Both the position numbers and the translations under genes were made by a program. Shown one piece after another: positions 1 through 37,434 of a stretch of DNA of 64,000 nt; position 1 is the first letter of the stretch; each line of letters begins with the position of its first letter. A model generated the notes under the pieces. The model made no database searches. It saw nothing but the letters and a program-made list of their open reading frames with translations, and was not told where the DNA came from. This stretch comes from an uncultured Gaiellales bacterium (GTDB lineage Bacteria > Actinomycetota > Thermoleophilia > BMS3ABIN01), in contig CAZCCR010000002.1 in NCBI GenBank assembly GCA_964497425.1, positions 40,336-104,335 of the forward strand. Direction: 5' to 3'.

Positions 1-729
1 GATGCTTCCCGGCGCCTTTCCCCAGGGGTTCACCCAGCGACGGTCACGCGGCGTGTCCGTCTGGTTCCGCGTCGGGCTGAAGAAGACACCGCCGGAGTGC
101 ATCAGCTTGCTGAAGGGGAAGTAGAGCAGCAGCAGGAAGACCAGGCTGATATGGATGATGAACATCGGCTCCGTAGGCATGTCCTGCGGGCTGAAGGATA
201 CGATGCCCAGCACGAACTCCTTGACCGATGTGACGTTGGTGCGGGCGAAGTGCTTGAGGATATAGCCGCTGCCGGCGATGGCCATCAGCAGCAGCAGCAG
301 GATGTAGTCGTTCATCACCGAAAGGTATGCAGTGCGGTCCACCACCAGCCTGAGCACGAACAGCATCACCAGCCCTCCCAGCATGATCAGACCGGCGTAA
401 AGCTCGAAGGTGGTGATGTAGTGGATCCATTCAGGGGCCGAGGCGAAGAAGAAGCGATAGTGCTTGAGCAGAGCGAGGAAGAGCCCGATGTGGAACATGT
501 AGCCGAACAGCCAGATGATACGGTTGCTCTTCAGCAGGCTCCGGAACAGGCCTACCTCCAGCACCATCCGGCCCACGACGCCGCTGCCGGTGGTCGGGGA
601 AGGGGTCTGGTCGATCTTGAGGGGCGCGGGGGTCGTCGCGTATTTCCAGATACGGTAAAGGAAGCCGATCAGGAAAACGGCGACAGCAACATAAGCATAA
701 ATCAGGAAGAAGATCGTCAGTCCGCTCAT
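1..729 (-). CDS. NarI/DsrM-like heme-b membrane subunit (nitrate reductase gamma / HdrE family), 3' end truncated by the window edge; start ATG at 729
   Basis: Own translation of the minus strand from ATG 729 reads MSGLTIFFLIYAYVAVAVFLIGFLYRIWKYATTPAPLKIDQTPSP...HIGLFLALLKHYRFF...HISLVFLLLLYFPFSKLMH with no stop down to position 1. It shows multiple TM helices with conserved His, typical of the NarI/DsrM/HdrE family. This frame is not in the supplied ORF track. Confidence 0.6.
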   Translation of the reverse strand, partial: MSGLTIFFLIYAYVAVAVFLIGFLYRIWKYATTPAPLKIDQTPSPTTGSGVVGRMVLEVGLFRSLLKSNRIIWLFGYMFHIGLFLALLKHYRFFFASAPEWIHYITTFELYAGLIMLGGLVMLFVLRLVVDRTAYLSVMNDYILLLLLMAIAGSGYILKHFARTNVTSVKEFVLGIVSFSPQDMPTEPMFIIHISLVFLLLLYFPFSKLMHSGGVFFSPTRNQTDTPRDRRWVNPWGKAPGSI

Positions 730-916
730 ATCACATCCCTTTGGTCGGTAGCACCGGTGATCAGTACTGAACCTGCAACAGAACGCATCTCCCTATACCC
801 CCCCAAGTATTGGCAACGATAGCACGGCGAATCGGAGACTGTCAAACAGGCTGAAGCGCCCCCACCGCTTGTGCTTCTTTGGAACAATACCTTAGCGGGT
901 ATTTGAGACAAGTGGA

Positions 917-946
917 AATCTAACACCCTTTTTCGGTTCTTGTCAA
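917..946 (-). promoter_or_regulatory. Candidate sigma70 promoter for the NarI/DsrM-like gene (TTGACA-17nt-TTAGAT, with TGT just upstream of the -10)
   Basis: TTGACA is the reverse complement of 941-946. The only AT-richer patch in the 365-bp intergenic region. Confidence 0.3.
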
Positions 947-1040
947 TAGCCCGGGCTTTTCCGGGTGCTGCTTCCGTGGATCCCGCTTCCGGGGGAGGGC
1001 TTTTGGAGTGTGGCTTTCTCGGGGTCCGCCGCCGCCTGCG

Positions 1041-1100
1041 GCAGGCCTCCCCCATCAAGACCAGGCCTCTTCCGTCACGAGCAGGCCTCTTCCGTCACGA
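1041..1100. repeat. 3 x 20-bp tandem repeat (GCAGGCCTCTTCCGTCACGA-like; copies 2 and 3 match 19/20) spanning the last codons, stop and 3' flank of the CbiA/DsrN-like gene
   Basis: Units at 1041-1060, 1061-1080 and 1081-1100, read directly. Confidence 0.75.
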
Positions 1101-2525
1101 CTGCCCGATGAAGGAAACCAGACGCTCCGCCCACCGGGGTGAACCCAGGCTGTGCAGGTGGGCATAGGAGGCGAGGATGTTCCCGTGCAGGATGCCGTCG
1201 TGCCTGCCGTCCACGCCGGTGCCGCGTATGACCTTCCAGGCGAAGCCGGCCCCGCTCCCGCCCCGACGGCGCGAATCGCCCCCGGCCCCTTCCAGGCCGG
1301 TGATCTGTGAGTAGTGGAACTCGTGTCCCCGCACCCTGGCCCCGGCATCGAACCAGCCACCCTCTCCCGTAGCTTCCAGCTCCATGTAGCCGTGCCCCTG
1401 CGGTTTCTCGTGCATTAGGACGTCACAGGGGAGGGCGCCGACCATCTCCCGGGAGCCGCCCTTCCAGGTCATGCGCCGCGAGAGGTACATCAGACCGCCG
1501 CATTCCGCGTAGACGGGCATCCCGGCCGCAGCGGCCTCCCGTATCTGCCTGCGCATGCTGCTGTTGGCCTCCAGCTCCTCCATGAACACTTCCGGGAAGC
1601 CGCCTCCTATGAAAAGCCCATCCACCGAAGGCAGCTCGCCGTCGTCCATGGGGCTGAAGGGCACCAGCTCGGCGCCGGCCATTCGCAGGGCCTCCAGGTT
1701 CTCCGGGTAATAGAAGGTGAAGGCCCGGTCACGGGCCAGGCCGAGGCGGACACGGGGCTCCGGCGGCGTGGCGGCGGCCTGCACGCCACCGGCGATGGGC
1801 GGCGCCATCGCCGCTATCTCCCTGATCCGCTCCAGGTCCACATATCCGGTGATGGCGCCGCCCATCGCCTCTATCACCGACTCGGCCGCCAGGTGTTCCC
1901 GCGCCGGCTCCAGGCCGAGATGGCGCATGATTATGCCCATCTCCGAACGGCGGGGGATGGAGCCCACCACCTCGATATCCGTGTACTCCGCGATCGCCGC
2001 CCTGAGTTTCCGTTCGTGACGTGGACCGAAGACCTTGTTCAACACCACGCCTGCGATGGAGATGTCGGGCTCGAACTGCTGAAAGCCCATGAGCAGGGGA
2101 GCGATGCTGCGGTTCATGCTGCGGGTGTCGACGATGAGGACCACCGGCGCTCCCAGCAGCCGCGCCATGTCGGAGCTGCTGCCGCGGCCGTCCACTTCCA
2201 GGCTGTCATAGAGCCCCATGTTTCCCTCGATGATACCGATATCGGCAGGGCCGCTCTTCCCCCCGCCACCTTCCGCGACCGCGCCGGACGCCGCACGGCG
2301 GAAGGAGTCGAGGATGTTGTCCTCTCCCATCATGAACAGGTCCAGGTTGCGGCAGTCGTTGCCGGCTGCTGCGCTCAGCCACATGGGGTCGATGAAATCA
2401 GGCCCCTTCTTGAAGGGCTGCACCTTCAGGCCGGCGTCTCGCAGCGCCCGGCAGAGGCCGGTGCTGAGCGTGGTCTTGCCGGAACTGCGATGAGGACCGG
2501 ATATGAGTATCCTGGGAATCCGCAA
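1095..2525 (-). CDS. CbiA/CobB-family amidase (cobyrinic acid a,c-diamide synthase family; DsrN-like candidate siroheme amidase given context); TTG start
   Basis: 476 aa with an N-terminal P-loop (ISGPHRSSGKTTLSTGLCRAL) and a C-terminal glutamine amidotransferase region, the typical CbiA/CobB architecture. The next gene downstream is NarI/DsrM-like. Confidence 0.8.
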   Translation of the reverse strand: MRIPRILISGPHRSSGKTTLSTGLCRALRDAGLKVQPFKKGPDFIDPMWLSAAAGNDCRNLDLFMMGEDNILDSFRRAASGAVAEGGGGKSGPADIGIIEGNMGLYDSLEVDGRGSSSDMARLLGAPVVLIVDTRSMNRSIAPLLMGFQQFEPDISIAGVVLNKVFGPRHERKLRAAIAEYTDIEVVGSIPRRSEMGIIMRHLGLEPAREHLAAESVIEAMGGAITGYVDLERIREIAAMAPPIAGGVQAAATPPEPRVRLGLARDRAFTFYYPENLEALRMAGAELVPFSPMDDGELPSVDGLFIGGGFPEVFMEELEANSSMRRQIREAAAAGMPVYAECGGLMYLSRRMTWKGGSREMVGALPCDVLMHEKPQGHGYMELEATGEGGWFDAGARVRGHEFHYSQITGLEGAGGDSRRRGGSGAGFAWKVIRGTGVDGRHDGILHGNILASYAHLHSLGSPRWAERLVSFIGQS

Positions 2526-2540
2526 GATCGCCCTTTTATT

Positions 2541-2677
2541 CGGGGACGTACTTAAACTTGTGAAACTTGTGCTGTCATGCGGCTCGTTTCACACAGGTAG
2601 TGCCAAGAGTATAGAAAAAGCATGCATCATAGTGAATTCCGACGCCGGTAAGTCTCACAAGTTTCAGTACGTCCCCG
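2541..2677. repeat. MITE-like element or long hairpin: 24-bp inverted repeat (cggggacgtacttaaacttgtgag-like arms, 22/24 match) flanking ~80 bp, in the 5' leader of the CbiA/DsrN-like gene; a third partial arm copy at 2749-2766 overlaps the rluD stop
   Basis: Left arm at 2541-2571 (also carrying the direct repeat aacttgtg x2). The reverse complement of the right arm at 2653-2677 reads cggggacgtactgaaacttgtgag. Confidence 0.6.
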
Positions 2678-2706
2678 TTTGCCATCCGAAAGCCTGACAT
2701 CAGGCC

Positions 2707-2737
2707 TTGTATAGTGACAAATATACGTTTTGTCAAA
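2707..2737 (-). promoter_or_regulatory. Candidate sigma70 promoter for the CbiA/DsrN-like gene (TTGACA-17nt-TATACA on the minus strand)
   Basis: TTGACA is the reverse complement of 2731-2736, and TATACA of 2709-2714. This places the inverted-repeat element inside a ~175-nt 5' UTR. Confidence 0.4.
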
Positions 2738-2751
2738 TAAGTTTCATTAGT

Positions 2752-3693
2752 TTAAGAACGTCCCCGGAGATGCTGCAGAACGGTGCTGAGGTCATCCGGC
2801 AGCGGTGACTCCACTTCCACCGTCTCGCCCGTGTGTGGGTGGCGGAAACCGAGACGGGCGGCATGGAGGAACTGCCGGCCTATGCCCAGAGCGTCATGGC
2901 GCCTGCCGTACGTGGTATCACCCGCCACCGGGTGGCCGATGGCCGCCAGGTGGACCCTGATCTGATGGGTGCGTCCCGTCTCCAGTTCCACCTCCAGCAG
3001 GGAGTAACCATCATCGCCGCCATGGGCACGGCCCGCGTCTTTCCAGCTCTCCAGGACCCTGAAATGGGTGACGGCGTCGCGGCCCGCATCCCCCCCGACC
3101 GACATCTTCTGGCGATCCGCCCTGTCGCGCCCGACGGGAGCATCTATGGTGCCTTCCGCGGTCTGGAAGCTGCCATGCACCAGGGCGATATAGGTGCGCC
3201 GGACCTCGTGGCGCGAGAGCAAGTCCACCAGTAGCCGATGGGTCTCCGCATCCCGGGCCACCACCAGCAACCCGGAAGTGTCCTTGTCCAGCCGGTGGAC
3301 GATGCCGGGGCGCCGGGGATGCTCCCCGCCCGCCGCGCCGTGGGCCAGCAGGCCGTGGACAAGTGTGCCGCTGTCATGCCCTTTCGCCGGATGGGTGACC
3401 ATACCGGCCGGCTTGTCCACCACCAGCAGCCACCGGTCCTCGTAGGGAATGTCCAGGTCCATCTCTTCCGGTTCGAGCCCCGTCTCCCGGGGCGGCGGCA
3501 GGGTCGCGTCTATCACCTCGCCGGCGCGGAGCCTGTGGTTCTTGCCCCTGGTCTCGCCGTCCACCAGTACCATTCCTTCAGCGATGAGCCGCTGTGCCCT
3601 GGTCCGGGAGCCGACATCGGGCACCGTCGAGAGAAAGCTGTCCAGACGTGTGCCTTCTACTTCCGGAGCTACCTTTATGGTGACACTACTCAC
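2752..3693 (-). CDS. rluD: RluA-family 23S rRNA pseudouridine synthase (RluD-like)
   Basis: N-terminal S4-like domain, catalytic HRLDKDTSGLLVVA motif, 313 aa. Confidence 0.85.
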   Translation of the reverse strand: MSSVTIKVAPEVEGTRLDSFLSTVPDVGSRTRAQRLIAEGMVLVDGETRGKNHRLRAGEVIDATLPPPRETGLEPEEMDLDIPYEDRWLLVVDKPAGMVTHPAKGHDSGTLVHGLLAHGAAGGEHPRRPGIVHRLDKDTSGLLVVARDAETHRLLVDLLSRHEVRRTYIALVHGSFQTAEGTIDAPVGRDRADRQKMSVGGDAGRDAVTHFRVLESWKDAGRAHGGDDGYSLLEVELETGRTHQIRVHLAAIGHPVAGDTTYGRRHDALGIGRQFLHAARLGFRHPHTGETVEVESPLPDDLSTVLQHLRGRS

Positions 3694-7360: not shown

Positions 7361-8083
7361 TCAATCCTGCCGGCGCCGGCGGCAGCCGTACAGCACGCTG
7401 CCGACCCGGATGATGGTGGCACCCTCCTCCGCCGCCACCACATAATCGTTGCTGGTGCCCATGGATAGCTCCCGGAAGCTGTGGCGACCCCGCCAGTCAC
7501 GGGCGAGCCTGAAAGAGAGTTCGCGCAAGGCCGCGAAAAGGGGGCGGGAATCTTCGGGGTCTGCCGCCAGCGGCGGCATGGTCATGAGGCCGGTGAAATC
7601 CACCATGGTGAAACTTTCAGCCTCCTCCAGGAAGCGGTTCACTTCGGAGGGAATGATACCATACTTCCCCGGCTCTTCGCCAATGTTGACCTGCAGGAGA
7701 ACTTTTGCTTTAGTATGCGCCCGCCGCTGGATCTCGCGCAAGACGGATATTGATTCCACGGAGTGGATCAGCCGCACCCGCGGCAGCACCTGCCGTACCT
7801 TGTTGCTCTGCAGGTGCCCGATGAAATCCCAGGTGAAGCGGCTGCTAAAACGGTCGTAACGCGCCGCCAGGTCCTGGGCCCGGTTCTCGCCCACGAGCCT
7901 GACCCCTGCCTCCGCCAGCGTCTCCAGCGCTTCCGCGTCCACGTACTTGATCGCCGCCAGCATCTCCACCCCGCCGGGGGAAAGGCCGGCGCGGCGGCGG
8001 GCCGCGTCCACTTCCGCCTCGATACGCTCCCTGTTCTGCCTGATGGCGGCGGCGTCGAGGTCACCCCTGCCGTATCTCACCCG
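7361..8083 (-). CDS. yggS: YggS-family PLP-homeostasis protein (alanine racemase N-terminal fold); start approximate
   Basis: IKYVDAEAL...VRLVGENRAQDL...HLQSNKV motifs. Overlaps the upstream pgeF stop. Confidence 0.8.
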   Translation of the reverse strand, partial: RVRYGRGDLDAAAIRQNRERIEAEVDAARRRAGLSPGGVEMLAAIKYVDAEALETLAEAGVRLVGENRAQDLAARYDRFSSRFTWDFIGHLQSNKVRQVLPRVRLIHSVESISVLREIQRRAHTKAKVLLQVNIGEEPGKYGIIPSEVNRFLEEAESFTMVDFTGLMTMPPLAADPEDSRPLFAALRELSFRLARDWRGRHSFRELSMGTSNDYVVAAEEGATIIRVGSVLYGCRRRRQD

Positions 8084-8889
8084 ATCCAAGCCATCGCCCC
8101 CTGCCTGCCGGTCGCGGGCCCGTCGCGGCGGTAGGAGAAGAAGTCCCCGTCGCAACAAGTGCAGATGTCAAGGTCGTGGATGCGCCCTGCCTCTACCCCT
8201 GCCCGGGTCAGGTCGGCAACCACGCCGTATTTGAGGTCCAGGCTGCCGTCAGCGACGGCGGCGTCGCCGAAACGGCACCGGAACTCCGCCGCCGTGCCCG
8301 CATCCACCCGGTAGCAGCAGGGCTTGACCGCCGGGCCCAGGGCGGCGGTGACGGATGACGGGTCCGCCCCCGTCCCGGCCATGGCCTTCACAGTGTTTGT
8401 TACCACCCCTCCCACCAGGCTGCGACGGCCGGCGTGGGCCACCGCCACCACCGGCCCCCGCTCCGCTTCCGCGCACAGCACCACGGGCACGCAGTCGGCG
8501 AACTGCAGGAGAAGCGGCGCGCTCTTCAGCCTGGTCACCATGGCGTCGCAGGGGTCGAAGGGGTTGGCGGCGGACATGCGTGAGCCGGAGCCTATATCCA
8601 TCTCCTTCTCCAGCAGTACCACATCGGCGCTGTGCCGCTGACGCGGCGAAGTGACGCGGGAGGCCTTTTGCCCCAGGGCCCGGCCCAGCAGTTGCCGGTT
8701 CCTGTGCACCTGGCCAGGGTCATCGCCCACATGGAACCCCAGGTTGAGGGAATCGTAGGGTGGCCGGCTGACGCCGCCCAGGCGGCAGCTGAAGAAAGCC
8801 TTGGTACCTTCCACAGCCCTGGTGAAGCGCCAGAGCCTGATATCCATGTACTCCTCCTCGGCGAAGGAGCTGTCCCTACTGTCGCTCAT
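8077..8889 (-). CDS. pgeF: YfiH/PgeF-family laccase-domain protein (peptidoglycan editing factor); start approximate
   Basis: PYDSLNLGFHVGDDP and CADC..V motifs of DUF152/YfiH. Conserved position right after ftsZ. Confidence 0.8.
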   Translation of the reverse strand: MSDSRDSSFAEEEYMDIRLWRFTRAVEGTKAFFSCRLGGVSRPPYDSLNLGFHVGDDPGQVHRNRQLLGRALGQKASRVTSPRQRHSADVVLLEKEMDIGSGSRMSAANPFDPCDAMVTRLKSAPLLLQFADCVPVVLCAEAERGPVVAVAHAGRRSLVGGVVTNTVKAMAGTGADPSSVTAALGPAVKPCCYRVDAGTAAEFRCRFGDAAVADGSLDLKYGVVADLTRAGVEAGRIHDLDICTCCDGDFFSYRRDGPATGRQGAMAWIG

Positions 8890-12267: not shown

Positions 12268-13185
12268 TCTGCCACCTTCCTCAGGCGGATATCACCTAGG
12301 AGCCTCACTTCCGGTTCCAGTACGACCCCGAAGCTCTCGAAGACGCGCCAGCGACACTCATCCATGACGGAGACGACGTCGGCCGCGGTGGCGCCGCCGC
12401 TGTTGATGACGAAATTGGCATGGAGCGGCGAGACGGCGGCGCCACCGCGGCCCACTCCCTTGCATCCGGCGCGGTCCAGCAGTTCACCGGCGGAGGGCCC
12501 TTCAGGCGGGTTGCGAAAGGTGCTGCCGAAAGTACGCACGCCGCGGGGCTGGGACGCCTCGCGCCTGGACAGGTACCGGCGCATCGAGAGCCTGATGGCG
12601 TCCCGGTCCCCCTCGGCCAGCAGCAGCGACACGCGGCTGATCACCGCCCCCGGGGGAAGGGACGATGAGCGATAGCCCAGCCCCAGCTCCGCGGCGTCCA
12701 TTCTCCGTTCCCCGTCCGGAAGGCACACCTCGGCCCACTGCAGGTGGTCGCCGATGCACACCCCGAAGGCTCCGGCGTTCATCGCCACCGCCCCTCCCAG
12801 AGTGCCGGGTATACCCTCCAGCGTCTCCAGCCCGCTGAGGCCCTCCTCCCAGGCCATGCGCGCCACGCGCGGCAGGGAAGCGCCGGCTCCGCACCGGAGG
12901 GCGGTCCCCGACCGCCTGCATTCCTTCAGTCCACCGCCGAGGCGGATCACCACGCCTTCCCAGCCATGGTCGGAGGCCAGCACGTTGGAACCTGCGCCGA
13001 GTACGAACCGGGGCAGACCGCATCCTCGGGCGGCCTCCAGAACCGCCGCCAGGGCGCCGGCGCTCCCGACATCCACTACGTAAGCAGCCGGGCCGCCGCA
13101 GCCGATTGTGGTCATTCGGGAAAACGGGATACCACGCTGGACCCTGCCCCCGGACGCCGACTCCAGTTCGTGGCAGGGCGCCGGC

Positions 13186-27502: not shown

Positions 27503-28360
27503 TCACATCTCGTCCGGCAACCCCTCCAGTTCCGCCATGGAGAAGACGGGACCGTCGACGCAGACGTACTCCGGGCCCACGTTGCACCGTCCGCAAAGGC
27601 CGATGCCGCACTTCATCCGCCGCTCCAGTGTAGTGTATATCTGCCCGGGGGAGAAGCCCATCTTCTCCAGGCTCTCCAGCACGTAGCGGATCATCACCGG
27701 CGGGCCGCAGGTCACGGCGATATTGTTCTCCGGCGACGGGCCCTCTTCCTCCAGCACCGCCGGCACCAGGCCCACGCGCCCCTCCCAGTCGGGATGACCC
27801 GTGTCTATGGTGGTGATGAAATCCACGCCACTGCCCTGCTCCCAGTCGCGACAGTCGTCGAGGTAGCAGATGTCCCGGGGCGTGCGGGCGCCGTAGATGA
27901 GCTGCAGGTCGGCGTAGTCTTCACGGTGGTCCAGCAGGTGCAGAAAGAGCGACCGCAGGGGGGCCATGCCGATGCCGCCGCCGATGACCAGGATGCTCTT
28001 GCCTTTCCATAGGTCCACAGGGAAATGGTTGCCCATGGGCGCGCGCACCGTCACCCTGTCCCCAACGGACAGCTCGTGGATGGCGGTGGTGACCACTCCC
28101 GTCTTCATCACCGAGAACTGCAGGTACTCCCGCTCCGACGGCGGCGAGGCGATGGCGAAGGTGGACTCACCAGCGCCGGGGATGCCCAGCTGACCCGTCT
28201 GGCCCGGCAGGAAGCTGAATGACTGCATCAGCTCCCGGTCCTCGAAGGCCACCCGCAACGACTTGATGTTATGGGTCTCCCTGATGATGTCCAGCACCTC
28301 AGCCGTCTCCGGCGTCAACGGCCGGGAGGCCTCCATGCCCTTCCGCGGGATAGTCGACAT
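27503..28360 (-). CDS. flxA: FlxA-like NAD(P)H:flavin oxidoreductase subunit (FAD/NAD-binding plus C-terminal [2Fe-2S]; AsrB/HydG-like)
   Basis: Ferredoxin-reductase-type FAD/NAD fold, C-terminal CGIGLCGRCNV cluster motif. Last gene of the hdr-flx run. Confidence 0.7.
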   Translation of the reverse strand: MSTIPRKGMEASRPLTPETAEVLDIIRETHNIKSLRVAFEDRELMQSFSFLPGQTGQLGIPGAGESTFAIASPPSEREYLQFSVMKTGVVTTAIHELSVGDRVTVRAPMGNHFPVDLWKGKSILVIGGGIGMAPLRSLFLHLLDHREDYADLQLIYGARTPRDICYLDDCRDWEQGSGVDFITTIDTGHPDWEGRVGLVPAVLEEEGPSPENNIAVTCGPPVMIRYVLESLEKMGFSPGQIYTTLERRMKCGIGLCGRCNVGPEYVCVDGPVFSMAELEGLPDEM

Positions 28361-29379
28361 CAGTACTCACCCGCCCTTCTGATCACGTCGCGGATGTCCA
28401 GCCCCACGGGACAGCCGCGGATGCAACGGCCGCAGCCGGTACAGAGGATCGGCCCCTGGCGTGACGGATAGTAGCTGAACTTGTGGCCGATGCGATTGCG
28501 GTAGCGGTGGGCGATGGTCGGACGCGGGTTGTGCCCCGATGTCTCCAGCGTGTAGAGGAAGAACATGCAGGCGTCCCAGCTGCGACAGCGCTCGCCCTCG
28601 CGCCGGCCGGTCATCTCGTCGAACATGTTGAAACAGTAGCATGTGGGACAGGTGAAGGTGCAGTAGCCGCAGGAGACGCAGCGTGCGGTCACCTCGTCCC
28701 AGAAATCCAGGTCGGCGAATATATCACCCGTCAGCTTCTCCTCGAGCTCCTTCATGGGCACCTGGTCGTTGACCGCCAGCGGGGGCGGCTCCAGGTCGCT
28801 CTCCTCCCAGACTCCCAGCTGAAGCAGCTCCTCCCCGCGGGGACTGGACGCCCGCGCCAGGTAGCCGTCTCCGGCGGGGTATAGGATCACGTCCGACCCT
28901 TCGCTCGAGGCCGTGCCCTCCTCCCATGATGAGCAGAAGCAGGCGGCGTCCGCCTGCGTACAGGCCAGGGTGATCACCGTGAGGCCGCGCCGTCTCGAGC
29001 TGTATCCGGGGTCCTGGTATGACTTGCCCGGCGGTGGGTCGAAGAGGGCGTCCAGCACCGTCAGGGCGCGCGCGTCGCAGACGCGCGCGCCGAAGAGGAA
29101 CCTCTCTCCCTCCCCGTACCGCGGATCCGACAGCTCCAGCCGGTCGCCCTCCTCCGTCATGGCGTAACTGAAATCCATCAGCTTCTCCGTCGCCGGCAGC
29201 ACCAGCTCCTTGGCGGAGAGGGTGGTGAAACGCTCCAGTTCCAGGGAGGCGCCGGGCCGCCAGGGCCGGAAGAGGACCGTACCGGCGGCGCCATCCATCT
29301 GCCGCGGCGCCCAGACCTCTCCGCGGTCCGCCAAGGCGGTGAGTAGCCGGTCGATGTCGTCCGTGGCGATATATCTCAT
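28360..29379 (-). CDS. flxB: FlxB-like iron-sulfur subunit (AsrA/HydB-like, two [4Fe-4S] motifs); start approximate
   Basis: CVSCGYCTFTCPTCYC and CTGCGRCIRGCPVG motifs. Confidence 0.65.
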   Translation of the reverse strand: MRYIATDDIDRLLTALADRGEVWAPRQMDGAAGTVLFRPWRPGASLELERFTTLSAKELVLPATEKLMDFSYAMTEEGDRLELSDPRYGEGERFLFGARVCDARALTVLDALFDPPPGKSYQDPGYSSRRRGLTVITLACTQADAACFCSSWEEGTASSEGSDVILYPAGDGYLARASSPRGEELLQLGVWEESDLEPPPLAVNDQVPMKELEEKLTGDIFADLDFWDEVTARCVSCGYCTFTCPTCYCFNMFDEMTGRREGERCRSWDACMFFLYTLETSGHNPRPTIAHRYRNRIGHKFSYYPSRQGPILCTGCGRCIRGCPVGLDIRDVIRRAGEY

Positions 29380-30305
29380 GATTCCCGGTCCCAGATATCC
29401 TTGTCGGGATCGAAGACGAGCATGGGCGGCCTGGCGCCCAGGTCGGCGCCGGCGCTGTAGCCGAACATCTCCTCGATGGCGCGGTTCTGCTCCTGAAGCA
29501 GCAGCATCAGCGGGATGCCGACGGGACAGGCCCGTTCGCACTCGCCACAGCCCGTGCAGCGGCCGGCCAGGTGGCCTACCCGGATCAGCTGGATCATCTC
29601 CGACTGTTTGGCGTCCACGGCGCCGCCGGCCCAGTGGGGCACCTGCGTCTGCATGATGCAGACATCACGGCAGAAACACATGGGGCAGACCTCGCGGCAG
29701 GCATAGCAGCGGATACAGCGCGAGAACTGCTCCCGCCAGAAGACCCGGCGCTCCCGCGGCGTCAGCGAGTCGAACAATCGGCGCAGAGGGTGTCCCGGAC
29801 CCCCGCCCTCAGTCCTGTCCCCCGCCGCCTCGCCGATGACGTGATCGTAGATGTCCGGGTCAGCTTCCAGGCAGTTGTGGCATTTGGGCTGGATGAACAC
29901 TTCCCGTTCCACCTCCCGGCCGTCCACGGTGAGGGAGGCGCCGCCATCTTCGATGGCGGCGCCGTATCCGTAGCGCCGCCATATCTTCTTGACGTCCAGC
30001 ACGCCGCTACAGCCGACGCCGATGACCTCGACCCTCTCACGCTCCACCTCATGCTCGATTATCAGCTCCACCACGCTTCGTGCGTCGCAGCCCTTGGCGA
30101 CGATCCCCACCCGCTTGTCCTTCAGCCGCGGCAGGTGCACCGCCAGGTTGTGGACGCAGGTGCTGTCGAACAGGGCCCGCTCCGCCTCTTCTCCGTCACG
30201 GAAGCGGGCAGGAGCCGCCACCCCGCTGGCGGCATCGGTCTCCCAGCCCAGCACCAGGTCGGTCCTCTCCAGAACCTTCTTTATGACTTCGACCAGTTCG
30301 CTCAT
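29376..30305 (-). CDS. flxC: FlxC-like iron-sulfur subunit (FrhB/AsrA-like, two [4Fe-4S] motifs)
   Basis: CIRCYACREVCPMCFC and CTGCGECERACPVG motifs. Paralogous to the preceding gene. Confidence 0.65.
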   Translation of the reverse strand: MSELVEVIKKVLERTDLVLGWETDAASGVAAPARFRDGEEAERALFDSTCVHNLAVHLPRLKDKRVGIVAKGCDARSVVELIIEHEVERERVEVIGVGCSGVLDVKKIWRRYGYGAAIEDGGASLTVDGREVEREVFIQPKCHNCLEADPDIYDHVIGEAAGDRTEGGGPGHPLRRLFDSLTPRERRVFWREQFSRCIRCYACREVCPMCFCRDVCIMQTQVPHWAGGAVDAKQSEMIQLIRVGHLAGRCTGCGECERACPVGIPLMLLLQEQNRAIEEMFGYSAGADLGARPPMLVFDPDKDIWDRES

Positions 30306-30781
30306 GGCTCTCGCTCTTCCCTGTCGGCAGGTGCCACAGCCGCTGAATCATCAGCAACCGATCCCTTTGCAGTCCCGGCGTAGTCCAGCTTGCCAAGAGG
30401 CCTGACCGCCTCCGTGAAATCCGCCACCGTCTCGGCCCAGCGCGCCCCCTCGGAGGCGCTGACCCAGGTATAGCGGAAACGTTCCGGCTCGATGCCGTAA
30501 ACCTTCACCATACGCTTCAGCAGCTCCAGCCGCCGGCGCGCGTAGAAATTCCCTTCGTTGTAATGGCAGTCGCCGGGATGGCAGCCGCTCACCAACACCC
30601 CGTCCGCCCCCTCCTGGAACGCCTTCAGCACCAGCAGGGGGTTGACCCGGCCTGTGCAGGGCAGGCGCACGATGCGCATCTCCGCCGGCTGGGCCATGCG
30701 GGAGGTGCCGGCCATGTCGGCGCCGGCATAGGAACACCAGTTACAGAGGAATCCCACCAGCTTTATGCCTTCACCGCTCAC
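30302..30781 (-). CDS. mvhD: MvhD-like (FlxD) [2Fe-2S] electron-transfer protein
   Basis: Motif set LCNWCSYAGAD...RLPCTGRV...GCHPGDCHY is characteristic of the methyl-viologen-reducing hydrogenase delta subunit family that partners HdrA. Confidence 0.75.
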   Translation of the reverse strand: MSGEGIKLVGFLCNWCSYAGADMAGTSRMAQPAEMRIVRLPCTGRVNPLLVLKAFQEGADGVLVSGCHPGDCHYNEGNFYARRRLELLKRMVKVYGIEPERFRYTWVSASEGARWAETVADFTEAVRPLGKLDYAGTAKGSVADDSAAVAPADREEREP

Positions 30782-32739
30782 CTGAGCGCCTCCGTCACTT
30801 CCTGGATAAGCTGGTTGTCAGTATAGCCCCTCAGTGATATCACCGATGGCGGGCAGGCCACGTTGCAGAGCCCGCAGCCCTGGCAGAGAGACTCTATCAC
30901 CACCGCCACGTGGCGGCCGTCCCGCAATCCCTGTTCCTCGATGGCATGGTAGGGGCAGACCTCGCGGCATTTGAAACAGCCGATGCAGCGCATGTGGTTG
31001 ACCTCGGCGATCATGGGGCTGGTCTCCAGCTCGTCGCGGGAGAGCAGACCGATCACCTTGGCCGCGGCGGCGCTGGCCTGGGCGACGGTCCCGGGGATAT
31101 CCCTTGGCCCCTGGCAGGCTCCGGCCAGGAAGATACCGCCGGTAGTGGTCTCCACCGGCCGCAGCTTGGGATGGCTCTCGGAGAGGAAGCCGTATCCGTC
31201 GTAGGGGATGTTCAGCTTCTGCGCCAGACCCGTCACCCCTTCGGCGGCGTCGAGCCCGGTGGCCAGCACCACCAGGTCGGCTTCCACTTCCACGTTCTCA
31301 CCCGCCAGCGTGTCCACGCCCATCACCACCAGCTTGCCGTCCCGTGGATAGATCTTGCCCACCCGTCCCCGCAGGTAGATGGCGCCCGCTTCCTTCTGGG
31401 CCCGCCGGTAGAACTCCTCGTAGCCCTTGCCGCCGGCGCGCACGTCCATATAGAAGACGTATGATTGGGAATCGGGGATGTGCTCCTTTGTCAGGATGGC
31501 CTGTTTGGCGATGTACATGCAGCCCACGTTACAGCACAGCGGCCGTCCGATGGACTCGTCCCGGGAACCGACGCAGGAGAGGAACACGACATCTTTCGGC
31601 TCGGCCCCGTCCGAGGGCCGCCGGATATGGCCGCCGGTCGGGCCCGAAGCGGAGAGCATGCGTTCATACTGCATGGAAGTGATGACGTCCGGGTAGAGGC
31701 CGCCGCCGTAATGGGGATAGGCCTGCCGCCAGTCGAACAGCTCATACCCCGTCGCCACCACGATGGCGCCGAACTTCTCCGTGTGCAGTTCGTCCTCCTG
31801 TTCGTAATCCACCGCGTCCGCGGGACAGACCTTCTTGCAGATGCCGCACTTGCCCTTTATGAACAGGCGGCAGTGTTCCTTCCTCAGGGATGCCACCAGG
31901 GGCACGGCCTGGGGGAAGGCGATGGAGATGGCCTTCGATTCGCCAACGCCGGCGTTGAACTCGTCCGGCGCCGGGTTGGGGCACTTCTGCTCGCAGATCT
32001 GGCAGCCGGTGCACTTCTCCTCGTCGACGCAGGTGGCCTTCTTCCTGATGTCCACCTCGAAGTTGCCGATGTAGCCGCGCACCTGCTCCACCTCGCTGTT
32101 GACCATCAGCCTGATGTTCTCATGATGTTTCACTTCCACCATGCGGGGGGTGAGGATGCAGGACGAGCAGTCCAGGGTGGGAAAGGTCTTGTCCAGCCGC
32201 GCCATGTTGCCGCCGATGGTCGGCCCCTTCTCCACCAGGGTGACGGGCATGCCGGCGTCGGCGATGTCCAGCGCCGCCTGGATGCCGGCGACGCCGCCGC
32301 CGATGATCAGCACCTCGCCCGCCACCGGCACGCGGCTGGTGAACAGCGGTGTCTGCTCGCGCACCTTGGCCACGCCCATGGCCATCAGGTCGATGGCCTT
32401 CTCCGTCGCCACGTCCATGTCCGAATGTATCCAGGAGCAGTGCTCGCGGATGTTGACCATCTCCATCATGAAGGGGTTGATGCCAGCCTGGGCGACGGTG
32501 CGCTGGAAGGTGGTCTCGTGCATCCGCGGCGAGCAGGCGGCGATCACCACCCGGTCCAGGGCGTGCTTGTGCGCCGCCGCGACGATGGTGCGCTGTCCCG
32601 GGTCCGAACATGTGTACTGGATGGACTCGGCATGGACCACATCGCGCAGTGACATGGCGGCCTTCACCACCCTGTCGGTGGAGACTGTGGCGGCGATGTT
32701 GGAGCCGCACTGGCAGACGAAGACACCTATGCGCATCAG
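30778..32739 (-). CDS. hdrA: Heterodisulfide reductase subunit A-like flavoprotein (start at MRIGVFVCQCG; the ORF-track N-terminal extension overlaps hdrB)
   Basis: FAD GxGxxG (IIGGGVAGIQAALDIA), several CxxCxxCxxxCP ferredoxin motifs, ~650 aa. Confidence 0.85.
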   Translation of the reverse strand: MMRIGVFVCQCGSNIAATVSTDRVVKAAMSLRDVVHAESIQYTCSDPGQRTIVAAAHKHALDRVVIAACSPRMHETTFQRTVAQAGINPFMMEMVNIREHCSWIHSDMDVATEKAIDLMAMGVAKVREQTPLFTSRVPVAGEVLIIGGGVAGIQAALDIADAGMPVTLVEKGPTIGGNMARLDKTFPTLDCSSCILTPRMVEVKHHENIRLMVNSEVEQVRGYIGNFEVDIRKKATCVDEEKCTGCQICEQKCPNPAPDEFNAGVGESKAISIAFPQAVPLVASLRKEHCRLFIKGKCGICKKVCPADAVDYEQEDELHTEKFGAIVVATGYELFDWRQAYPHYGGGLYPDVITSMQYERMLSASGPTGGHIRRPSDGAEPKDVVFLSCVGSRDESIGRPLCCNVGCMYIAKQAILTKEHIPDSQSYVFYMDVRAGGKGYEEFYRRAQKEAGAIYLRGRVGKIYPRDGKLVVMGVDTLAGENVEVEADLVVLATGLDAAEGVTGLAQKLNIPYDGYGFLSESHPKLRPVETTTGGIFLAGACQGPRDIPGTVAQASAAAAKVIGLLSRDELETSPMIAEVNHMRCIGCFKCREVCPYHAIEEQGLRDGRHVAVVIESLCQGCGLCNVACPPSVISLRGYTDNQLIQEVTEALR

Positions 32740-33617
32740 GCCACCCCCGCCAGCCATCTGTCCAGGTCGGGCCTGACCGCCAGGGCGTCCAGGCCCAGCT
32801 CCTCGGGAGGGATGCCCAGGGCCAGGCCGATGGCCTGGCTGAAATAGAGCACCGGCATCCGCAGCGAGGCGCCGTAGGCGTAATTGATCTGCCCCTGCCG
32901 CAGATCCAGGTTCTGGTGACAGAGGGGACAGGCGGTGACCAGGGCGTCCAGCCCCGTGGACATGGCCACGTCGATGATGCGCCTGCTGGCCTCCAGCACG
33001 ATATCCTTGCGCGCCAGTCCCATGTAGGAGCCGCAGCATTCGGTCTTGAAGGGGAAATGGGGCACCTGGGCGCCCGTGGCCTCCAGCAGCGGCCGCATCT
33101 TGCGGGGGTCCCGCGGACTGTCGAAGCCCATGATGTCCGCGGGCCTGGTCAGCAGGCAGCCGTAATAGGCGCCCAGGCGCACGTTCCGCAGCCGCTCCCC
33201 CGCCCGCCGGCGCAGCTCCTCCGGCGTCACTTCCCGGTTGAGCATCTGCACGATGTTGAGCACCTCGGTCCGGTAGCGCACCTCTTCCCCCAGCAGTTCG
33301 CTGGTCTGCTCCCGGATCCGCTCATCGCCCGCTATCTTGTACTGGGCGTACTTGAGACGGTTGTAGCAGCCGGCGCAGGGGGCCACCACAGCGTCATGGC
33401 CGGCGCCGGCGATATGCAGGTTGCGACCGGGAAGGAGCACGCCCAGGGTCTCCGCCTTGTGATGGGGCGCCGGCGACGCTCCACAGCAGTTCCAGTCCTG
33501 AAGCTCGTCCAGCCGCACGCCCAGCGCCTCCGCCACCTTGCGGAAGGAGATGTCGTATTCCATGGCGCTGCTCTTGAGGGAGCAGCCCGGGTAATATGAA
33601 TAGGGCGTCTTCACCAC
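32736..33617 (-). CDS. hdrB: Heterodisulfide reductase subunit B-like (two CCG domains)
   Basis: YYPGCSL...CCG and CCGS...CPLC motifs. Confidence 0.85.
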   Translation of the reverse strand: MVKTPYSYYPGCSLKSSAMEYDISFRKVAEALGVRLDELQDWNCCGASPAPHHKAETLGVLLPGRNLHIAGAGHDAVVAPCAGCYNRLKYAQYKIAGDERIREQTSELLGEEVRYRTEVLNIVQMLNREVTPEELRRRAGERLRNVRLGAYYGCLLTRPADIMGFDSPRDPRKMRPLLEATGAQVPHFPFKTECCGSYMGLARKDIVLEASRRIIDVAMSTGLDALVTACPLCHQNLDLRQGQINYAYGASLRMPVLYFSQAIGLALGIPPEELGLDALAVRPDLDRWLAGVA

Positions 33618-34282
33618 TTGGGCCTCTCTTTCGCCCTTTTGAAGATGCGGCGCACCCCGGCGCGGTCACGGATGCGCGGCGGCACGATGTGGACCTTCCT
33701 CTTCCTCAGCACCAGCGGCACGAGGGAGAGGTCGTTGAAGGGCCTGCCGCTCATCAGGTTGAACCAGACAAGCAGGCTCGCCTCATGCAGCCTGCCGTGA
33801 CGGCGGACGTTGCGCAAGAAAAGGCGGCGGAAACGCCTCAGGCCCCGCTCCGACTCCTCGATGCCCCGCTCGTCGGCTATGTTCTTCGCCGTCTCGATGA
33901 CATCGGCGACATCTATGCGGATGGGACAGCGCGACGAACAGGTCATGCAGTCGTAGCAGAGCTGTGCCGTGGTGGAAGCCAGCGCCCGGTCCACCAGGCC
34001 CAGCTGCAGCATGCGCATGAAGACATGGGGTGGATTATCGAAGGCGCCGGCGGCGGCGCAGGTGGAGGAACAGGTTCCACACTGGTAGCAGTCAGAGACC
34101 TTCTGTCCCGAACGCCGCTCGATCTCCGTCACGGTCTCGCGCCCTTCCCTTATGCTTCTGTTGACATTTATCATTACCCTTTCTCCATTCATGAAAGCGA
34201 CAAACCCGGCGGCGCCCCTGTCGATGCCCTGGATAGAAAGATCCATCCCGGCCGTCCGCCGAGTTTGTGAAAAATTTCTCAA
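33611..34282 (-). CDS. hdrC: Heterodisulfide reductase subunit C-like (two [4Fe-4S] motifs)
   Basis: CYQCGTCSSTC and CYDCMTCSSRCP motifs. Confidence 0.8.
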   Translation of the reverse strand: MRNFSQTRRTAGMDLSIQGIDRGAAGFVAFMNGERVMINVNRSIREGRETVTEIERRSGQKVSDCYQCGTCSSTCAAAGAFDNPPHVFMRMLQLGLVDRALASTTAQLCYDCMTCSSRCPIRIDVADVIETAKNIADERGIEESERGLRRFRRLFLRNVRRHGRLHEASLLVWFNLMSGRPFNDLSLVPLVLRKRKVHIVPPRIRDRAGVRRIFKRAKERPKW

Positions 34283-34330: not shown

Positions 34331-35425
34331 TCAGGGGCGGGACGCGGCTGTGTAGTCGTGCCGGCGCTGGACCGGGTTCCAGCCCGCCGCCTCTATGGCC
34401 CGCACCAGCTCCTCCCTGCCGACCCGGTAACTGACGCCGGCGGCGGCTACCACGTTCTCCTCGATCATGGTGCTGCCCAGGTCGTTGGCGCCGAAGGCCA
34501 TGGCCACCTGGGCGACCTTCAGGCCCTGGGTGACCCATGAGGCCTGAATGTTGTCGACGTTGTCCAGGTAGAGGCGGCTCACCGCCAGGGTCATCAGGTA
34601 GTCGATGCCGCTGGAGCTGGCGGCCCCCTCCATGCGGGTATGTTCGTCCTGGAAGGTCCAGGGGATGAAGGCCCGGAAGCCGCCGGTCTCGTCCTGCAGG
34701 CTGCGGATGCGGCGCATGTGCTCTACCCGGTCGGACAGAGACTCGATGCCGCCGAACATCATCGTCGCCGTGGACCTCAGTCCCGCACGGTGCGCCTGTC
34801 GCATCACGCCCATCCAGGTGTCGCTGTCGATCTTGCGCGGGCTCATCCTCAGCCGTACGCCGTCGGAGAGGATCTCGGCGCCGCCGCCTGGCAGGGAATC
34901 AAGGCCGGCCCGGTGCATGCGCCCGAGCGCCTCCGATACCGGTATGCCACTCACCTGTGCTATGTGGTGAACCTCCGGCGGCGATAGGGAGTGGATGGTG
35001 ATGTCCGGGAAGCGCTGCTTGATACCGGCGAACAGGCCGCAGTAGTAATCGATGTCCAGCTTCGGGTGCAGCCCCCCCTGCATCATGATGCCGGTGCCGC
35101 CCAGCTCGATGGTCTCTTCTATCTTGGTGTATATCTCCTCGTCGCTGAGCAGGTAGCCCTCGCTGGAGCCCAGGGGGCGGTGAAAGGCGCAGAAATCACA
35201 GCCGGTGATGCATATGTTCGTGTAGTTGATGTTGCGGTCGACTACGTAGGTGACATCTCCGCCGGGTACCTTGCGCTGCCGCGCCGCGGCCGCCGCCCGT
35301 CCCACCGGCAGCAGCTGCCGGCTCGCCAGCAGCGCCTCGGCGTCTCCCTCGTCCAGGCGCTCTCCCGCCTCGGCCTTCTCCAGCGCCCGCTCGAGCCCTG
35401 CGTCCGTCACCGGCCGCTCATCCAT
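34331..35425 (-). CDS. Radical-SAM menaquinone (futalosine pathway) enzyme, MqnE/MqnC family
   Basis: CITGCDFCAF radical-SAM cysteine triad, ~360 aa, paralogous to the gene at 36334-37434 and flanking an mqnA-like gene. Confidence 0.75.
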   Translation of the reverse strand: MDERPVTDAGLERALEKAEAGERLDEGDAEALLASRQLLPVGRAAAAARQRKVPGGDVTYVVDRNINYTNICITGCDFCAFHRPLGSSEGYLLSDEEIYTKIEETIELGGTGIMMQGGLHPKLDIDYYCGLFAGIKQRFPDITIHSLSPPEVHHIAQVSGIPVSEALGRMHRAGLDSLPGGGAEILSDGVRLRMSPRKIDSDTWMGVMRQAHRAGLRSTATMMFGGIESLSDRVEHMRRIRSLQDETGGFRAFIPWTFQDEHTRMEGAASSSGIDYLMTLAVSRLYLDNVDNIQASWVTQGLKVAQVAMAFGANDLGSTMIEENVVAAAGVSYRVGREELVRAIEAAGWNPVQRRHDYTAASRP

Positions 35426-36344
35426 CGATGAACTCCAGCTCCGGCGCCGTCGCCGCCTCTCCTATCTCCACCGCCCGGCGGTAAAACCCGTCCAGGCCGC
35501 GACGGTACTCATCCGTGAGGTCATAGCGCAGCTTGCTGAAATAGGAGCGCAGCTGCCCGGGGCTGAAGGGATAGACATCCGCCGCCGCCCTGACCACCTC
35601 ATCCCTGTTCTCCGCGCAATAAGCGATGGAATATCCCAGCCGGTCCTGCACCTCCACCGTCTCACCGGGCCGACGCTGGAAGAAACTACGCCGCACCGCC
35701 CAGAGGGCGAAGACCATGGGCAGGCCGGTGAATCCCTTCCACTCCAGGCCCAGGTCATAACTGAACAGGCCGGTGCCGGCAGCCTCAGCCTCGGTACCGG
35801 CAGTCACGGTCGCCTTGCCGGCGCCGTAATACGCTTCCAGCGCCTGGTCACCGATGAGCAGGACTGCATCGTTGGTCTTGAGCGCCTCCGCCACACTGCC
35901 ATCCATGGGAGTATAGACGGGCTCGATGCCGTGCCTCTGCCTCAGCAGTATCTTCAAGAGCACCACCGAGGTGGCGCTCTGGCGCGTCAGAGCCACGGAC
36001 TCCACCTCTGCCATCGGCCGGCGGGAGACGAGGCGGATGCTGTCCACGGCGCCGTCGGCGGTGATGGAGACGTGGGGGAAGAAGAGCAGCTCATCGGCGT
36101 GGACGCCGCATTCGATGGATGAGACGGGGCTGATGTCCAGCTCCCCCGCCAACAGCTTGCGGTTCAGGTCCGTGGGCACGCCTCCCACCAGCCGGAAACA
36201 GCCCCAGCCCGCTCCCCTTTCCAGGCCGTAGTAAAGGGGATATCCGTTGAGGAACTCGAAATGGCCGATACGGATGGTAGACTGGTCCAGGCCCTCCGTC
36301 CGGCCGCCGGCGGCCCCCGTGCCCTTCTGTTCCTCAGTCCTCAT
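35418..36344 (-). CDS. mqnA: MqnA/MqnD-family menaquinone biosynthesis protein (chorismate dehydratase-like); start approximate
   Basis: IRIGHFEFLNGYPLYYGL N-terminal motif of the futalosine-pathway MqnA/MqnD fold (DUF178). Confidence 0.7.
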   Translation of the reverse strand: MRTEEQKGTGAAGGRTEGLDQSTIRIGHFEFLNGYPLYYGLERGAGWGCFRLVGGVPTDLNRKLLAGELDISPVSSIECGVHADELLFFPHVSITADGAVDSIRLVSRRPMAEVESVALTRQSATSVVLLKILLRQRHGIEPVYTPMDGSVAEALKTNDAVLLIGDQALEAYYGAGKATVTAGTEAEAAGTGLFSYDLGLEWKGFTGLPMVFALWAVRRSFFQRRPGETVEVQDRLGYSIAYCAENRDEVVRAAADVYPFSPGQLRSYFSKLRYDLTDEYRRGLDGFYRRAVEIGEAATAPELEFIDG

Positions 36345-37434
36345 AACGGCGCAAGATGTTGTAGAGGGTGTCCCGTTCCACCGGTACGCGACCGGCATCG
36401 CGGATGAGGCGGATCAGCTCTTCGCGGGTGATGGCCTCCTCCGTCTCGGCGCCGGCGGCATGGGTTATCTTCTCCTCCACCACGGTGCCGTCGATGTCGT
36501 TGACGCCGAAGTGCAGGGATATCTGCGCCAGCTTGACACCGATCATGATCCAGAAAGCCTTGATGTTGCGGAAGTTGTCCAGCATCAGGCGGCTGACGGC
36601 CAGCATCTTCAGGTCGTCGACGCCGGTGGGCGGCGACAGGTCCTGCAGCTCCGTGTTGGCGGGATGGAAGGAGAGGGGGATGAAGCTGCCGAAGCCGCCG
36701 GTCTCGTCCTGCAGCTGCCGAAGCCTGAGCAGATGGTCGATGCGCTCCTCGAGCGTCTCCACGTGGCCGTAGAGCATGGTGGCGTTGGACCTGATGCCGG
36801 CGCGGTGGGCGGTACGCATCACGTCCAGCCAGCCCTGCCCTGATATCTTGCGGCTGCATACCTGGCCGCGGACCCGCTCGGAGAAGATCTCGGCGCCGCC
36901 GCCGGGCATGCTGCCCAGCCCGGCTTCCTTCAGCTCCAGCAGCACCTGCTCGACGGTCTTGCCCGAGCGCCGGGCGAAGAAGGCTATCTCGGAGGCGGTG
37001 AAAGCCTGGATGTGGACCGAGGGGTCCAGACGGTGCAGGGCGGCGATCATCTCCACGTAGTACTCATATGGCAGTGACGGGTGCTCGCCGCCGACTATGT
37101 GCAACTCCGTGATGCCGTCCGCCAGGGAGGCGCGGGCACGGTCCAGCACCTCGTCCAGGGTCATGGTGTAGGCGCCCTCCTCTCCCTCACGGGCGCTGAA
37201 GGCGCAGAAGCGGCAGCTGTTGCCACAGACGTTGGTGTGGTTGATATGACGGTTGTTGACGAAATAGACCTCATCGCCGGCGTCGCGGCGACGCGCCAGG
37301 TCGGCCATGGCGCCAACGCGCAGCAGGTCGGGTGACCGCAGCAGTTCCAGTCCGTCGCCGGCGTCGAGCCGCTCTCCGGCCCTGACCTTCTCCTCGACCC
37401 TGTCCAGAGCCCCGGTGCCGGCATCCACAGCCAT
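36334..37434 (-). CDS. Radical-SAM menaquinone (futalosine pathway) enzyme, MqnC/MqnE family
   Basis: CGNSCRFCAF radical-SAM triad, 366 aa, paralog of 34331-35425. Confidence 0.75.
   Translation of the reverse strand: MAVDAGTGALDRVEEKVRAGERLDAGDGLELLRSPDLLRVGAMADLARRRDAGDEVYFVNNRHINHTNVCGNSCRFCAFSAREGEEGAYTMTLDEVLDRARASLADGITELHIVGGEHPSLPYEYYVEMIAALHRLDPSVHIQAFTASEIAFFARRSGKTVEQVLLELKEAGLGSMPGGGAEIFSERVRGQVCSRKISGQGWLDVMRTAHRAGIRSNATMLYGHVETLEERIDHLLRLRQLQDETGGFGSFIPLSFHPANTELQDLSPPTGVDDLKMLAVSRLMLDNFRNIKAFWIMIGVKLAQISLHFGVNDIDGTVVEEKITHAAGAETEEAITREELIRLIRDAGRVPVERDTLYNILRRYED

Follow-up and report, generated by a model that had tools for sequence, protein, structure and literature searches.

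Dsr systems of dissimilatory sulfur metabolism that mix reductive and oxidative components are already published from Thermoleophilia/Gaiellales and Aquicultoria, and the exact gene order discussed here is among them. Löffler et al. (2020, PMC7596348) described a dsrNMCKJOPABDL-2 cluster in Gaiellales bacterium SURF_19 and reported Actinobacteria that carry a reductive-type DsrA together with DsrL-2 and DsrEFH, and Diao et al. (2023, PMC10591310) reported the full pathway, along with DsrD and DsrL-2C, from Thermoleophilia and Aquicultoria; the DsrAB of the SURF_19-type cluster was taken as oxidative by the former and as reductive by the latter. In the published phylogeny DsrN forms its own clade of tetrapyrrole amidases, usually encoded adjoining dsr genes, and in lineages that mix reductive and oxidative Dsr proteins it is sister to the DsrN of sulfur oxidizers (PMC10504309). 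Here we consider the first 2,525 positions of a 64,000-nucleotide stretch from an uncultured Gaiellales bacterium (GCA_964497425.1, contig CAZCCR010000002.1, positions 40,336 to 104,335 of the forward strand; hereafter the window, whose own coordinates are used throughout unless a contig is named). We hold it very probable that these positions contain the first two genes of a complete dsr cluster, dsrN and then dsrM-C-K-J-O-P-A-B-(dsrD-like)-dsrL, most of which lies below coordinate 1.

The initial annotation of the window had drawn attention to a 476-residue open reading frame (ORF) of the CbiA/CobB family and to a NarI/DsrM-like cytochrome b, read from an ATG at 729 on the same strand at a distance of 365 bp, and had proposed from these a dsrN-dsrM linkage. 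Both genes proved to be as described. The amidase ORF begins with TTG at 2525 and stops at 1095-1097 on the minus strand, its GC content at third codon positions (GC3) is 0.84, as in real genes of the window, and its product has the two-domain architecture expected of DsrN, with Pfam matches to CbiA (1.5e-17) and GATase_3 (7.8e-38). The cytochrome b ORF has its ATG at 729-727, preceded by a Shine-Dalgarno-like AAGGGATG, and is open through base 1; it was absent from the ORF list only because it runs past the window edge, and its full product on the source contig has 254 residues.

The linkage is supported by the sequence beyond that edge. Three Joint Genome Institute (JGI) contigs encode a database protein (P0001) that has 100% identity to the amidase. 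Two of them, the 114-kb Ga0256747_1000013 (L001) and another of 13.9 kb (L002), match positions 1-3125 of the window without a difference. Below coordinate 1 both continue with the end of dsrM, dsrC, dsrK, dsrJ, dsrO, dsrP, dsrA, dsrB, an 83-residue ORF and dsrL (Table 1), and dsrC, K, J, O, P, A and B all lie within 9 kb of dsrN. The dsrK, dsrC and dsrAB genes that the initial annotation had suggested seeking downstream are thus present, with the refinement that dsrC sits between dsrM and dsrK; neither of the gene sets named there as contrary evidence was observed, cob/cbi genes not being found in the 64-kb window or in 10 kb downstream, nor narGHJ in the window or the downstream contig. No second dsrAB set was seen in the 10 kb read downstream. 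The cluster directly follows the cell-division (dcw) region, and in two relatives whose DsrN is 76-77% identical, L110 (GCA_024275795.1) and L111, the whole gene order is kept, including the dcw/rluD flank; dsrN is the first gene of the cluster on L001, L002, L110 and L111. It is unlikely that the join between dsrM and the rest of the cluster is an assembly artefact, because three independent assemblies and the two relatives agree. After dsrL, one of the close relatives (L112) and the more distant L085 carry dsrE, dsrF and dsrH; what comes after dsrL in this lineage is read from relatives.

We note that the amidase might, on the face of it, be an ordinary cobyrinic/hydrogenobyrinic acid a,c-diamide synthase (CbiA/CobB) that lies beside a cytochrome b by chance. 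It passes the NCBIfam CobB models (461 bits for TIGR00379 cobB; 455.6 for the CobB equivalog NF002204, cutoff 254), and all public names of its homologues are "cobyrinate a,c-diamide synthase"; these names, however, derive from models that do not distinguish DsrN. Since the hidden Markov model (HMM) libraries cannot tell DsrN from CobB, context and phylogeny were used instead. When 185,579 species genomes (one each) were scanned with an alignment of 45 homologues and the best 80 loci were taken, 74 of the 80 lay within 10 kb of one or more other dsr genes, and 64 had three or more such neighbours; the six relatives with no dsr neighbours were mostly short loci or lay near contig ends. The order in sulfur-oxidizer relatives was dsrAB(EFH)CMKLJOPN, and that in sulfate reducers and syntrophs dsrAB(D)N-C. 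Together with the missing cob/cbi neighbours, this dsr linkage of the closest genomic relatives argues against an enzyme of cobalamin synthesis.

The phylogeny of the amidase leads to the same placement. A neighbour-joining tree (94 sequences, 452 columns, 100 bootstraps) was built from 88 dsr-linked homologues and an outgroup of six CobB/CbiA genes annotated on plasmids, five of them within cob operons (Deinococcus, Halorussus, Lachnospira, Pseudosulfitobacter and Ralstonia). The dsr-linked clade, window amidase included, was split from the outgroup with a bootstrap of 90/100; the window protein grouped with three proteins from actinobacterial metagenome-assembled genomes (MAGs) at 100/100, and the actinobacterial group together with Nitrospinota L007 was sister of the sulfur-oxidizer DsrN clade at 83/100. 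Within the tree set the window protein was 63-67% identical to its actinobacterial relatives, while the values for sulfur oxidizers were 46-56% and those for sulfate-reducer types 47-51%; the range inside the dsr-linked clade was 44-67%, as against 32-42% to the outgroup enzymes. The placement matches the published DsrN phylogeny (PMC10504309), and the comparison that the initial annotation had recommended, DsrN against canonical CobB/CbiA, comes out on the side of DsrN. We therefore regard the ordinary CbiA/CobB reading as already largely refuted and as highly improbable. The CfbB family, whose members are Ni-sirohydrochlorin a,c-diamide synthases of F430 synthesis, was considered as well and rejected: the amidase scores 458.7 bits with NF033195, below the cutoff of 560, and its context is a bacterial dcw/dsr region, not the cfb/mcr setting of methanogens or anaerobic methanotrophic archaea (ANME). 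As a separate observation, a gene on a Thermus oshimai plasmid (L104; NC_019387.1, 108931-110256), annotated as "cobyrinate a,c-diamide synthase" and 40% identical to the window DsrN, is flanked not by cob genes but by a protoglobin-domain gene, a sulfate adenylyltransferase gene, cobA and a TauE/SafE exporter gene; all the same, it groups in the tree with the Deinococcus cob-operon CobB.

The residues of the amidase illustrate both what it has in common with CobB/CbiA and CfbB and what sets it apart. Fold and domain order are alike, and each of the catalytic positions (the P-loop G16-K17-T18, D43, D46, E100 and the glutaminase pair C342 and H456) is kept by 98% or more of the 94 sequences in the alignment. 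A second set, K40, W49, C58, F310 and W465, is found in 95% or more of the 88 dsr-linked homologues and in none of the six plasmid CobB/CbiA proteins; two lineage-specific Gly-rich insertions are present at residues 82-93 and 413-423. No CbiA, CobB or DsrN structure was detectable in the PDB by sequence, where only PdxT-type glutaminases were matched (E about 1e-4). By clade, context and residues we accordingly assign the 476-residue protein to DsrN, as a glutamine- and ATP-dependent tetrapyrrole a,c-diamide synthase that is predicted to act as a siroheme amidase and make siroamide for DsrAB. Alternatively, it might be the sole CbiA-family paralogue of the genome and serve both siroheme, for DsrAB, and the corrin pathway; the catalytic machinery wholly common to CobB/CbiA and the equal HMM scores would allow this. 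The five clade-specific substitutions suggest, on the other hand, a specialised substrate pocket, and separate CbiA and DsrN clades are generally described for sulfate reducers that make B12 (PMC10504309), so that we consider such a bifunctional enzyme very unlikely and retain the assignment to DsrN. At 1061-1100 a 20-nt sequence occurs twice in direct tandem (19/20 identical). The repeat spans the dsrN stop codon, so that the final codon, the stop and the beginning of the 3' flank are present in two copies; the stretch is absent in L110 and L111.

For the neighbouring gene, the competing possibility is that the cytochrome b is the NarI of a respiratory nitrate reductase or anchors a different complex, Hdr-like, Tmc or Qmo, in the membrane. 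Its Pfam family is Nitrate_red_gam (1.1e-11), and NCBI mostly names its homologues "respiratory nitrate reductase subunit gamma". The best NCBIfam match of the 243 residues encoded in the window is nonetheless the DsrM model NF038037 (171.8 bits), against 22.7 for narI (TIGR00351; 22.3-22.7 bits over the partial and full products, cutoff 105.55), and the TmcC and QmoC models, tried as candidates and rejected, reach only 23.7 and 16.8 bits. Homologues of 240-265 residues, from Thermoleophilia/Gaiellales MAGs and from sulfur oxidizers, occupy the dsrM position beside dsrK, with 40-48% identity in the dsrCMK clusters of sulfur oxidizers. In the source contig, too, dsrC and then a cutoff-passing DsrK come after the gene, dsrK lying 610 bp downstream of dsrM with dsrC between, as in L110 and L111, and narGHJ is missing from the locus. 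This context refutes the NarI/other-anchor reading, to which we give next to no credence. The protein has five hydrophobic segments, in keeping with the five transmembrane segments common to NarI and Desulfovibrio-type DsrM, and H80 and H90 on helix 2 and H193 and H211 on or after helix 5 are invariant among 27 homologues, a pattern that corresponds to the NarI dihaem arrangement and would provide for two b haems. We file it on these grounds as a short DsrM of sulfur-oxidizer-like form, the putative quinone-interacting subunit of DsrMKJOP.

Several points weigh against the reading of the locus as a complete dsr cluster headed by dsrN. The full 254-residue DsrM scores 172.5 bits, well short of the NF038037 equivalog cutoff of 300, although it leads the next family by about 150 bits; NF038037 spans 320 positions and is based on sulfate reducers, and the score fits with a model that describes the longer sulfate-reducer form. 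DsrJ (73.7 bits, cutoff 100) and DsrP (74.7 bits) are likewise best matches below the cutoffs of their models. No HMM in the libraries searched parts DsrN from CobB, the amidase passing the CobB equivalog cutoff and scoring equally with CfbB, and the neighbour-joining tree contains just six outgroup sequences, with neither CfbB nor methanogen CbiA among them. The 83-residue ORF in the DsrD position has no Pfam or NCBIfam match, and a sequence-profile search of the PDB finds no DsrD for it. Finally, the amidation of siroheme by DsrN rests, as far as the citing account in PMC10504309 relates it, on the genetics of Allochromatium vinosum.

The two genes are probably transcribed separately. A promoter consensus scan of positions 600-2800 returned four promoter-like sites where 0.5 were expected from shuffles, two of them in the dsrN-dsrM spacer, both kept in L110 and L111, and two weaker ones before dsrN. 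The spacer probably holds the promoter(s) of a dsrMC(KJOPAB...) transcription unit and dsrN probably has a promoter of its own, from which we infer two units, dsrN and dsrMC(K...). The spacer is about 80% identical to those of the relatives over 163 nt, and the flanking coding sequence 76-91%; an unusually conserved element was considered and dismissed, and since the identity is no higher than that of the coding flank we read the spacer as an ordinary conserved promoter region. Rfam returned no known RNA in it at gathering thresholds. Just downstream of both -10 elements, on the minus strand within 790-915, are the palindromes AATACC-N5-GGTATT and AATAC-N7/8-GTAT, which are kept in L110 and L111 and could be operator sites. 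Farther along, a perfect 14-bp GC-rich hairpin, CCGGCCCGGCCCGC-CCCAG-GCGGGCCGGGCCGG (L001, about 12950-12985), lies directly 3' of dsrC in the 230-bp dsrC-dsrK spacer, with a comparable GC-rich inverted repeat in L110; acting perhaps as an attenuator or stabiliser, it could separate the expression of dsrC from that of dsrK and later genes.

Table 1. Features of the dsr locus and its surroundings (window coordinates unless L001 is named; rows from DsrC to DsrL lie below coordinate 1)
Feature	Position	Strand	Description
dsrM, 5' part	1..729	-	243 of 254 codons in window
dsrN-dsrM spacer	730..1094	-	exactly 365 bp, two promoter-like sites
Promoter-like site	845..816	-	TTGACA-18-TATCGT, 10/12 positions, TG extension
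Promoter-like site	946..917	-	TTGACA-18-TAGATT, 10/12 positions, TG extension
dsrN	1095..2525	-	CbiA/CobB-family amidase, 476 aa
rluD-dsrN spacer, upstream of dsrN	2526..2751	-	226 bp
Weaker promoter-like sites before dsrN	2747..2720, 2636..2608	-	9/12 matches each, consensus scan only
hdrC-hdrB-hdrA-flxD-flxC-flxB-flxA	27503-34282	-	complete module
Futalosine-pathway menaquinone genes	34331-37434		after hdr-flx module
Two YeeE/YedE half-proteins	54818-55989	+	
DsrC	between dsrM and dsrK		TIGR03342, 163 bits; both functional cysteines in the C-terminus CKIAGLPKPTGCV
DsrK			NF045796, 544.5 bits, cutoff 400
DsrJ-like protein	L001 14757-15158		cytochrome c, 133 aa
DsrO			237.9 bits, cutoff 200
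DsrP-like protein			NrfD-type
DsrA			TIGR02064, 549.6 bits, cutoff 392.85
DsrB			TIGR02066, 490.5 bits, cutoff 341.5
DsrD-like ORF, 83 aa	L001 19764-20015, outside window		after dsrB; winged-helix model
DsrL			GltD-like Fe-S flavoprotein

The sequences themselves show which genes are present and in what order, that catalytic and ligand residues are kept, and to which clade the amidase belongs. Based on family knowledge, the products of the cluster would work together as follows. DsrN is predicted to convert siroheme, with ATP and glutamine, into the amidated form siroamide that DsrAB uses as its cofactor; DsrM, as a dihaem-b membrane subunit, may carry electrons between the menaquinone pool and DsrK, and the catalytic Fe-S site of DsrK would in turn act on the two C-terminal cysteines of DsrC. 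The futalosine menaquinone genes in the window fit a quinone-coupled DsrM.

The composition of the cluster is chimeric, as judged from the identities of the single proteins to reductive and oxidative loci (tblastn). DsrA is 54-60% identical to reductive-type proteins as compared to 38-43% for the rDsrA of proteobacterial sulfur oxidizers, and DsrB is likewise nearer the reductive type. The reverse is seen for DsrC (57-68% to proteobacterial sulfur oxidizers, 42-49% to sulfate-reducer loci), DsrK (53-63% and 27-45%), DsrM (39-48% and 30-36%) and DsrN (44-52% and 45-49%). For DsrL, identity to most copies from sulfur oxidizers is 35-39% (29-40% over all of them), in contrast to 50-55%, with one partial match at 60%, for copies found after dsrD in other phyla. 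By these comparisons DsrAB stands nearest the reductive forms, DsrMK, DsrC and DsrN stand nearest the sulfur-oxidizer forms, and DsrL is unlike the sulfur-oxidizer type.

As to the direction in which such a pathway might run, we lean towards the reductive, without pressing the point. What inclines us to it is a DsrAB of reductive-like kind beside the DsrD-like ORF and a DsrL that resembles DsrL-2, a combination (reductive DsrAB with DsrD and DsrL-2C) that Diao et al. (2023, PMC10591310) read as reductive. The 83-residue ORF belongs to a family with 201 database matches whose position after dsrB is kept in the homologues, and these, where named, are all "hypothetical" apart from two evidently spurious JGI names. 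Its AlphaFold (AF2) model (predicted local distance difference test score, pLDDT, 83) is a winged helix of three helices and two strands; in Foldseek the top match of the model is a Z-alpha domain (E 0.012) and DsrD 1wq2 ranks 38th (E 0.083, template modelling score, TM, 0.73), so that we call the ORF DsrD-like in the sense of a modelled fold compatible with DsrD.

The organism may, alternatively, be no sulfite or sulfate reducer: the same genes might run oxidatively, operate in disproportionation or switch direction. The sulfur-oxidizer character of DsrC, DsrK, DsrM and DsrN, the presence of dsrL and the dsrEFH genes of L112 and L085 all speak for this alternative, and the physiology of Actinobacteria with such genes has been called inconclusive (PMC7596348). 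It is opposed by the affinities of DsrA, DsrB and DsrL, and by the winged-helix protein in the DsrD position; we give it a substantial share of the probability, if somewhat below an even chance, and keep to the reductive lean. More boldly, we speculate that one reductive-like DsrAB with its DsrD-like partner, set upon a sulfur-oxidizer-type DsrMKJOP, DsrC and DsrN with DsrL-2 and DsrEFH, runs in both directions, and that a DsrJ with a CX6-12CH site and a divergent DsrD family could go along with this. Such an arrangement seems to us rather improbable; if true, a bidirectional DsrAB would let the organism switch between sulfite reduction and sulfur oxidation or disproportionation.

The DsrJ proteins deserve a remark of their own. 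Those of the source contig (L001), L110, L111, L005 (an Actinomycetota MAG) and L085 have two CXXCH motifs only, and their third haem-binding site is expanded to CX9CH in the source and L111, to CX12CH in L110 and to CX6CH in L005 and L085. A canonical third CXXCH is present in all eleven DsrJ proteins compared from sulfur oxidizers, sulfate reducers and Nitrospinota. To our knowledge the expanded third haem site of DsrJ has no previous description.

The remainder of the window is mostly given to housekeeping: the dcw cluster, proC, sepF, divIVA, pnp, rpsO, infB, nusA, the RNase P RNA and one tRNA-Leu. The initial annotation had also taken an Flx-Hdr module and YeeE/YedE transporters elsewhere in the window as a hint of dissimilatory sulfur metabolism. 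The genes are real, the former comprising a Fer4_17 protein, a CCG protein, a 753-residue HdrA, an MvhD/FlpD protein, two Fe-S proteins and an NAD-binding FlxA-like protein, but neither system is specific to sulfur respiration. Genes for sat, aprAB and qmo were not found within the 64-kb window. Over 12.5 kb the window and L001 differ by 23 substitutions, all within 7852-8252, and 22 of the 23 fall in about 95 bp (8158-8252) at the junction of yggS-like and Cu-oxidase_4 (YfiH-like) genes; here two populations that are otherwise identical differ by a short hypervariable or recombined stretch. A 535-residue ORF at 52323-53930 on the minus strand has a gene-like GC3 of 0.74 and no Pfam family at E<=0.001.

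The assignments given here correct two annotations, "cobyrinate a,c-diamide synthase" and "nitrate reductase gamma subunit", to the entry of a full dissimilatory sulfur-metabolism cluster and flag this actinobacterial population as a sulfur cycler. They also show that dsr loci cut at contig or window edges can be recognised by a CbiA-family gene beside a NarI-like one.

Among the systems described, the nearest is that of SURF_19, likewise of the Actinomycetota, with the same N-M-C-K-J-O-P-A-B-D-L order and dsrC inserted between dsrM and dsrK; as in the systems of Löffler et al. and Diao et al., relatives of the window locus carry dsrEFH, and the closest named homologues of its DsrM and DsrN come from Gaiellales and Thermoleophilia MAGs. 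It differs in sequence, the named DsrM homologue from Gaiellales (possibly, but not certainly, that of SURF_19) being 72% identical to the window DsrM, and the best GTDB species genome 64% identical for DsrN. To the longer Desulfovibrio-type DsrM the window protein stands in contrast as a short form of the sulfur-oxidizer type. With the DsrN of Allochromatium vinosum and other sulfur oxidizers (dsrABEFHCMKLJOPN) the window DsrN has in common the two-domain architecture, the dsr linkage and the position in a sister clade. Unlike theirs, its gene is not the last of the cluster but the first, with an upstream spacer of its own, and its product has the two Gly-rich insertions and accompanies a reductive-like DsrAB and a DsrD-like ORF.

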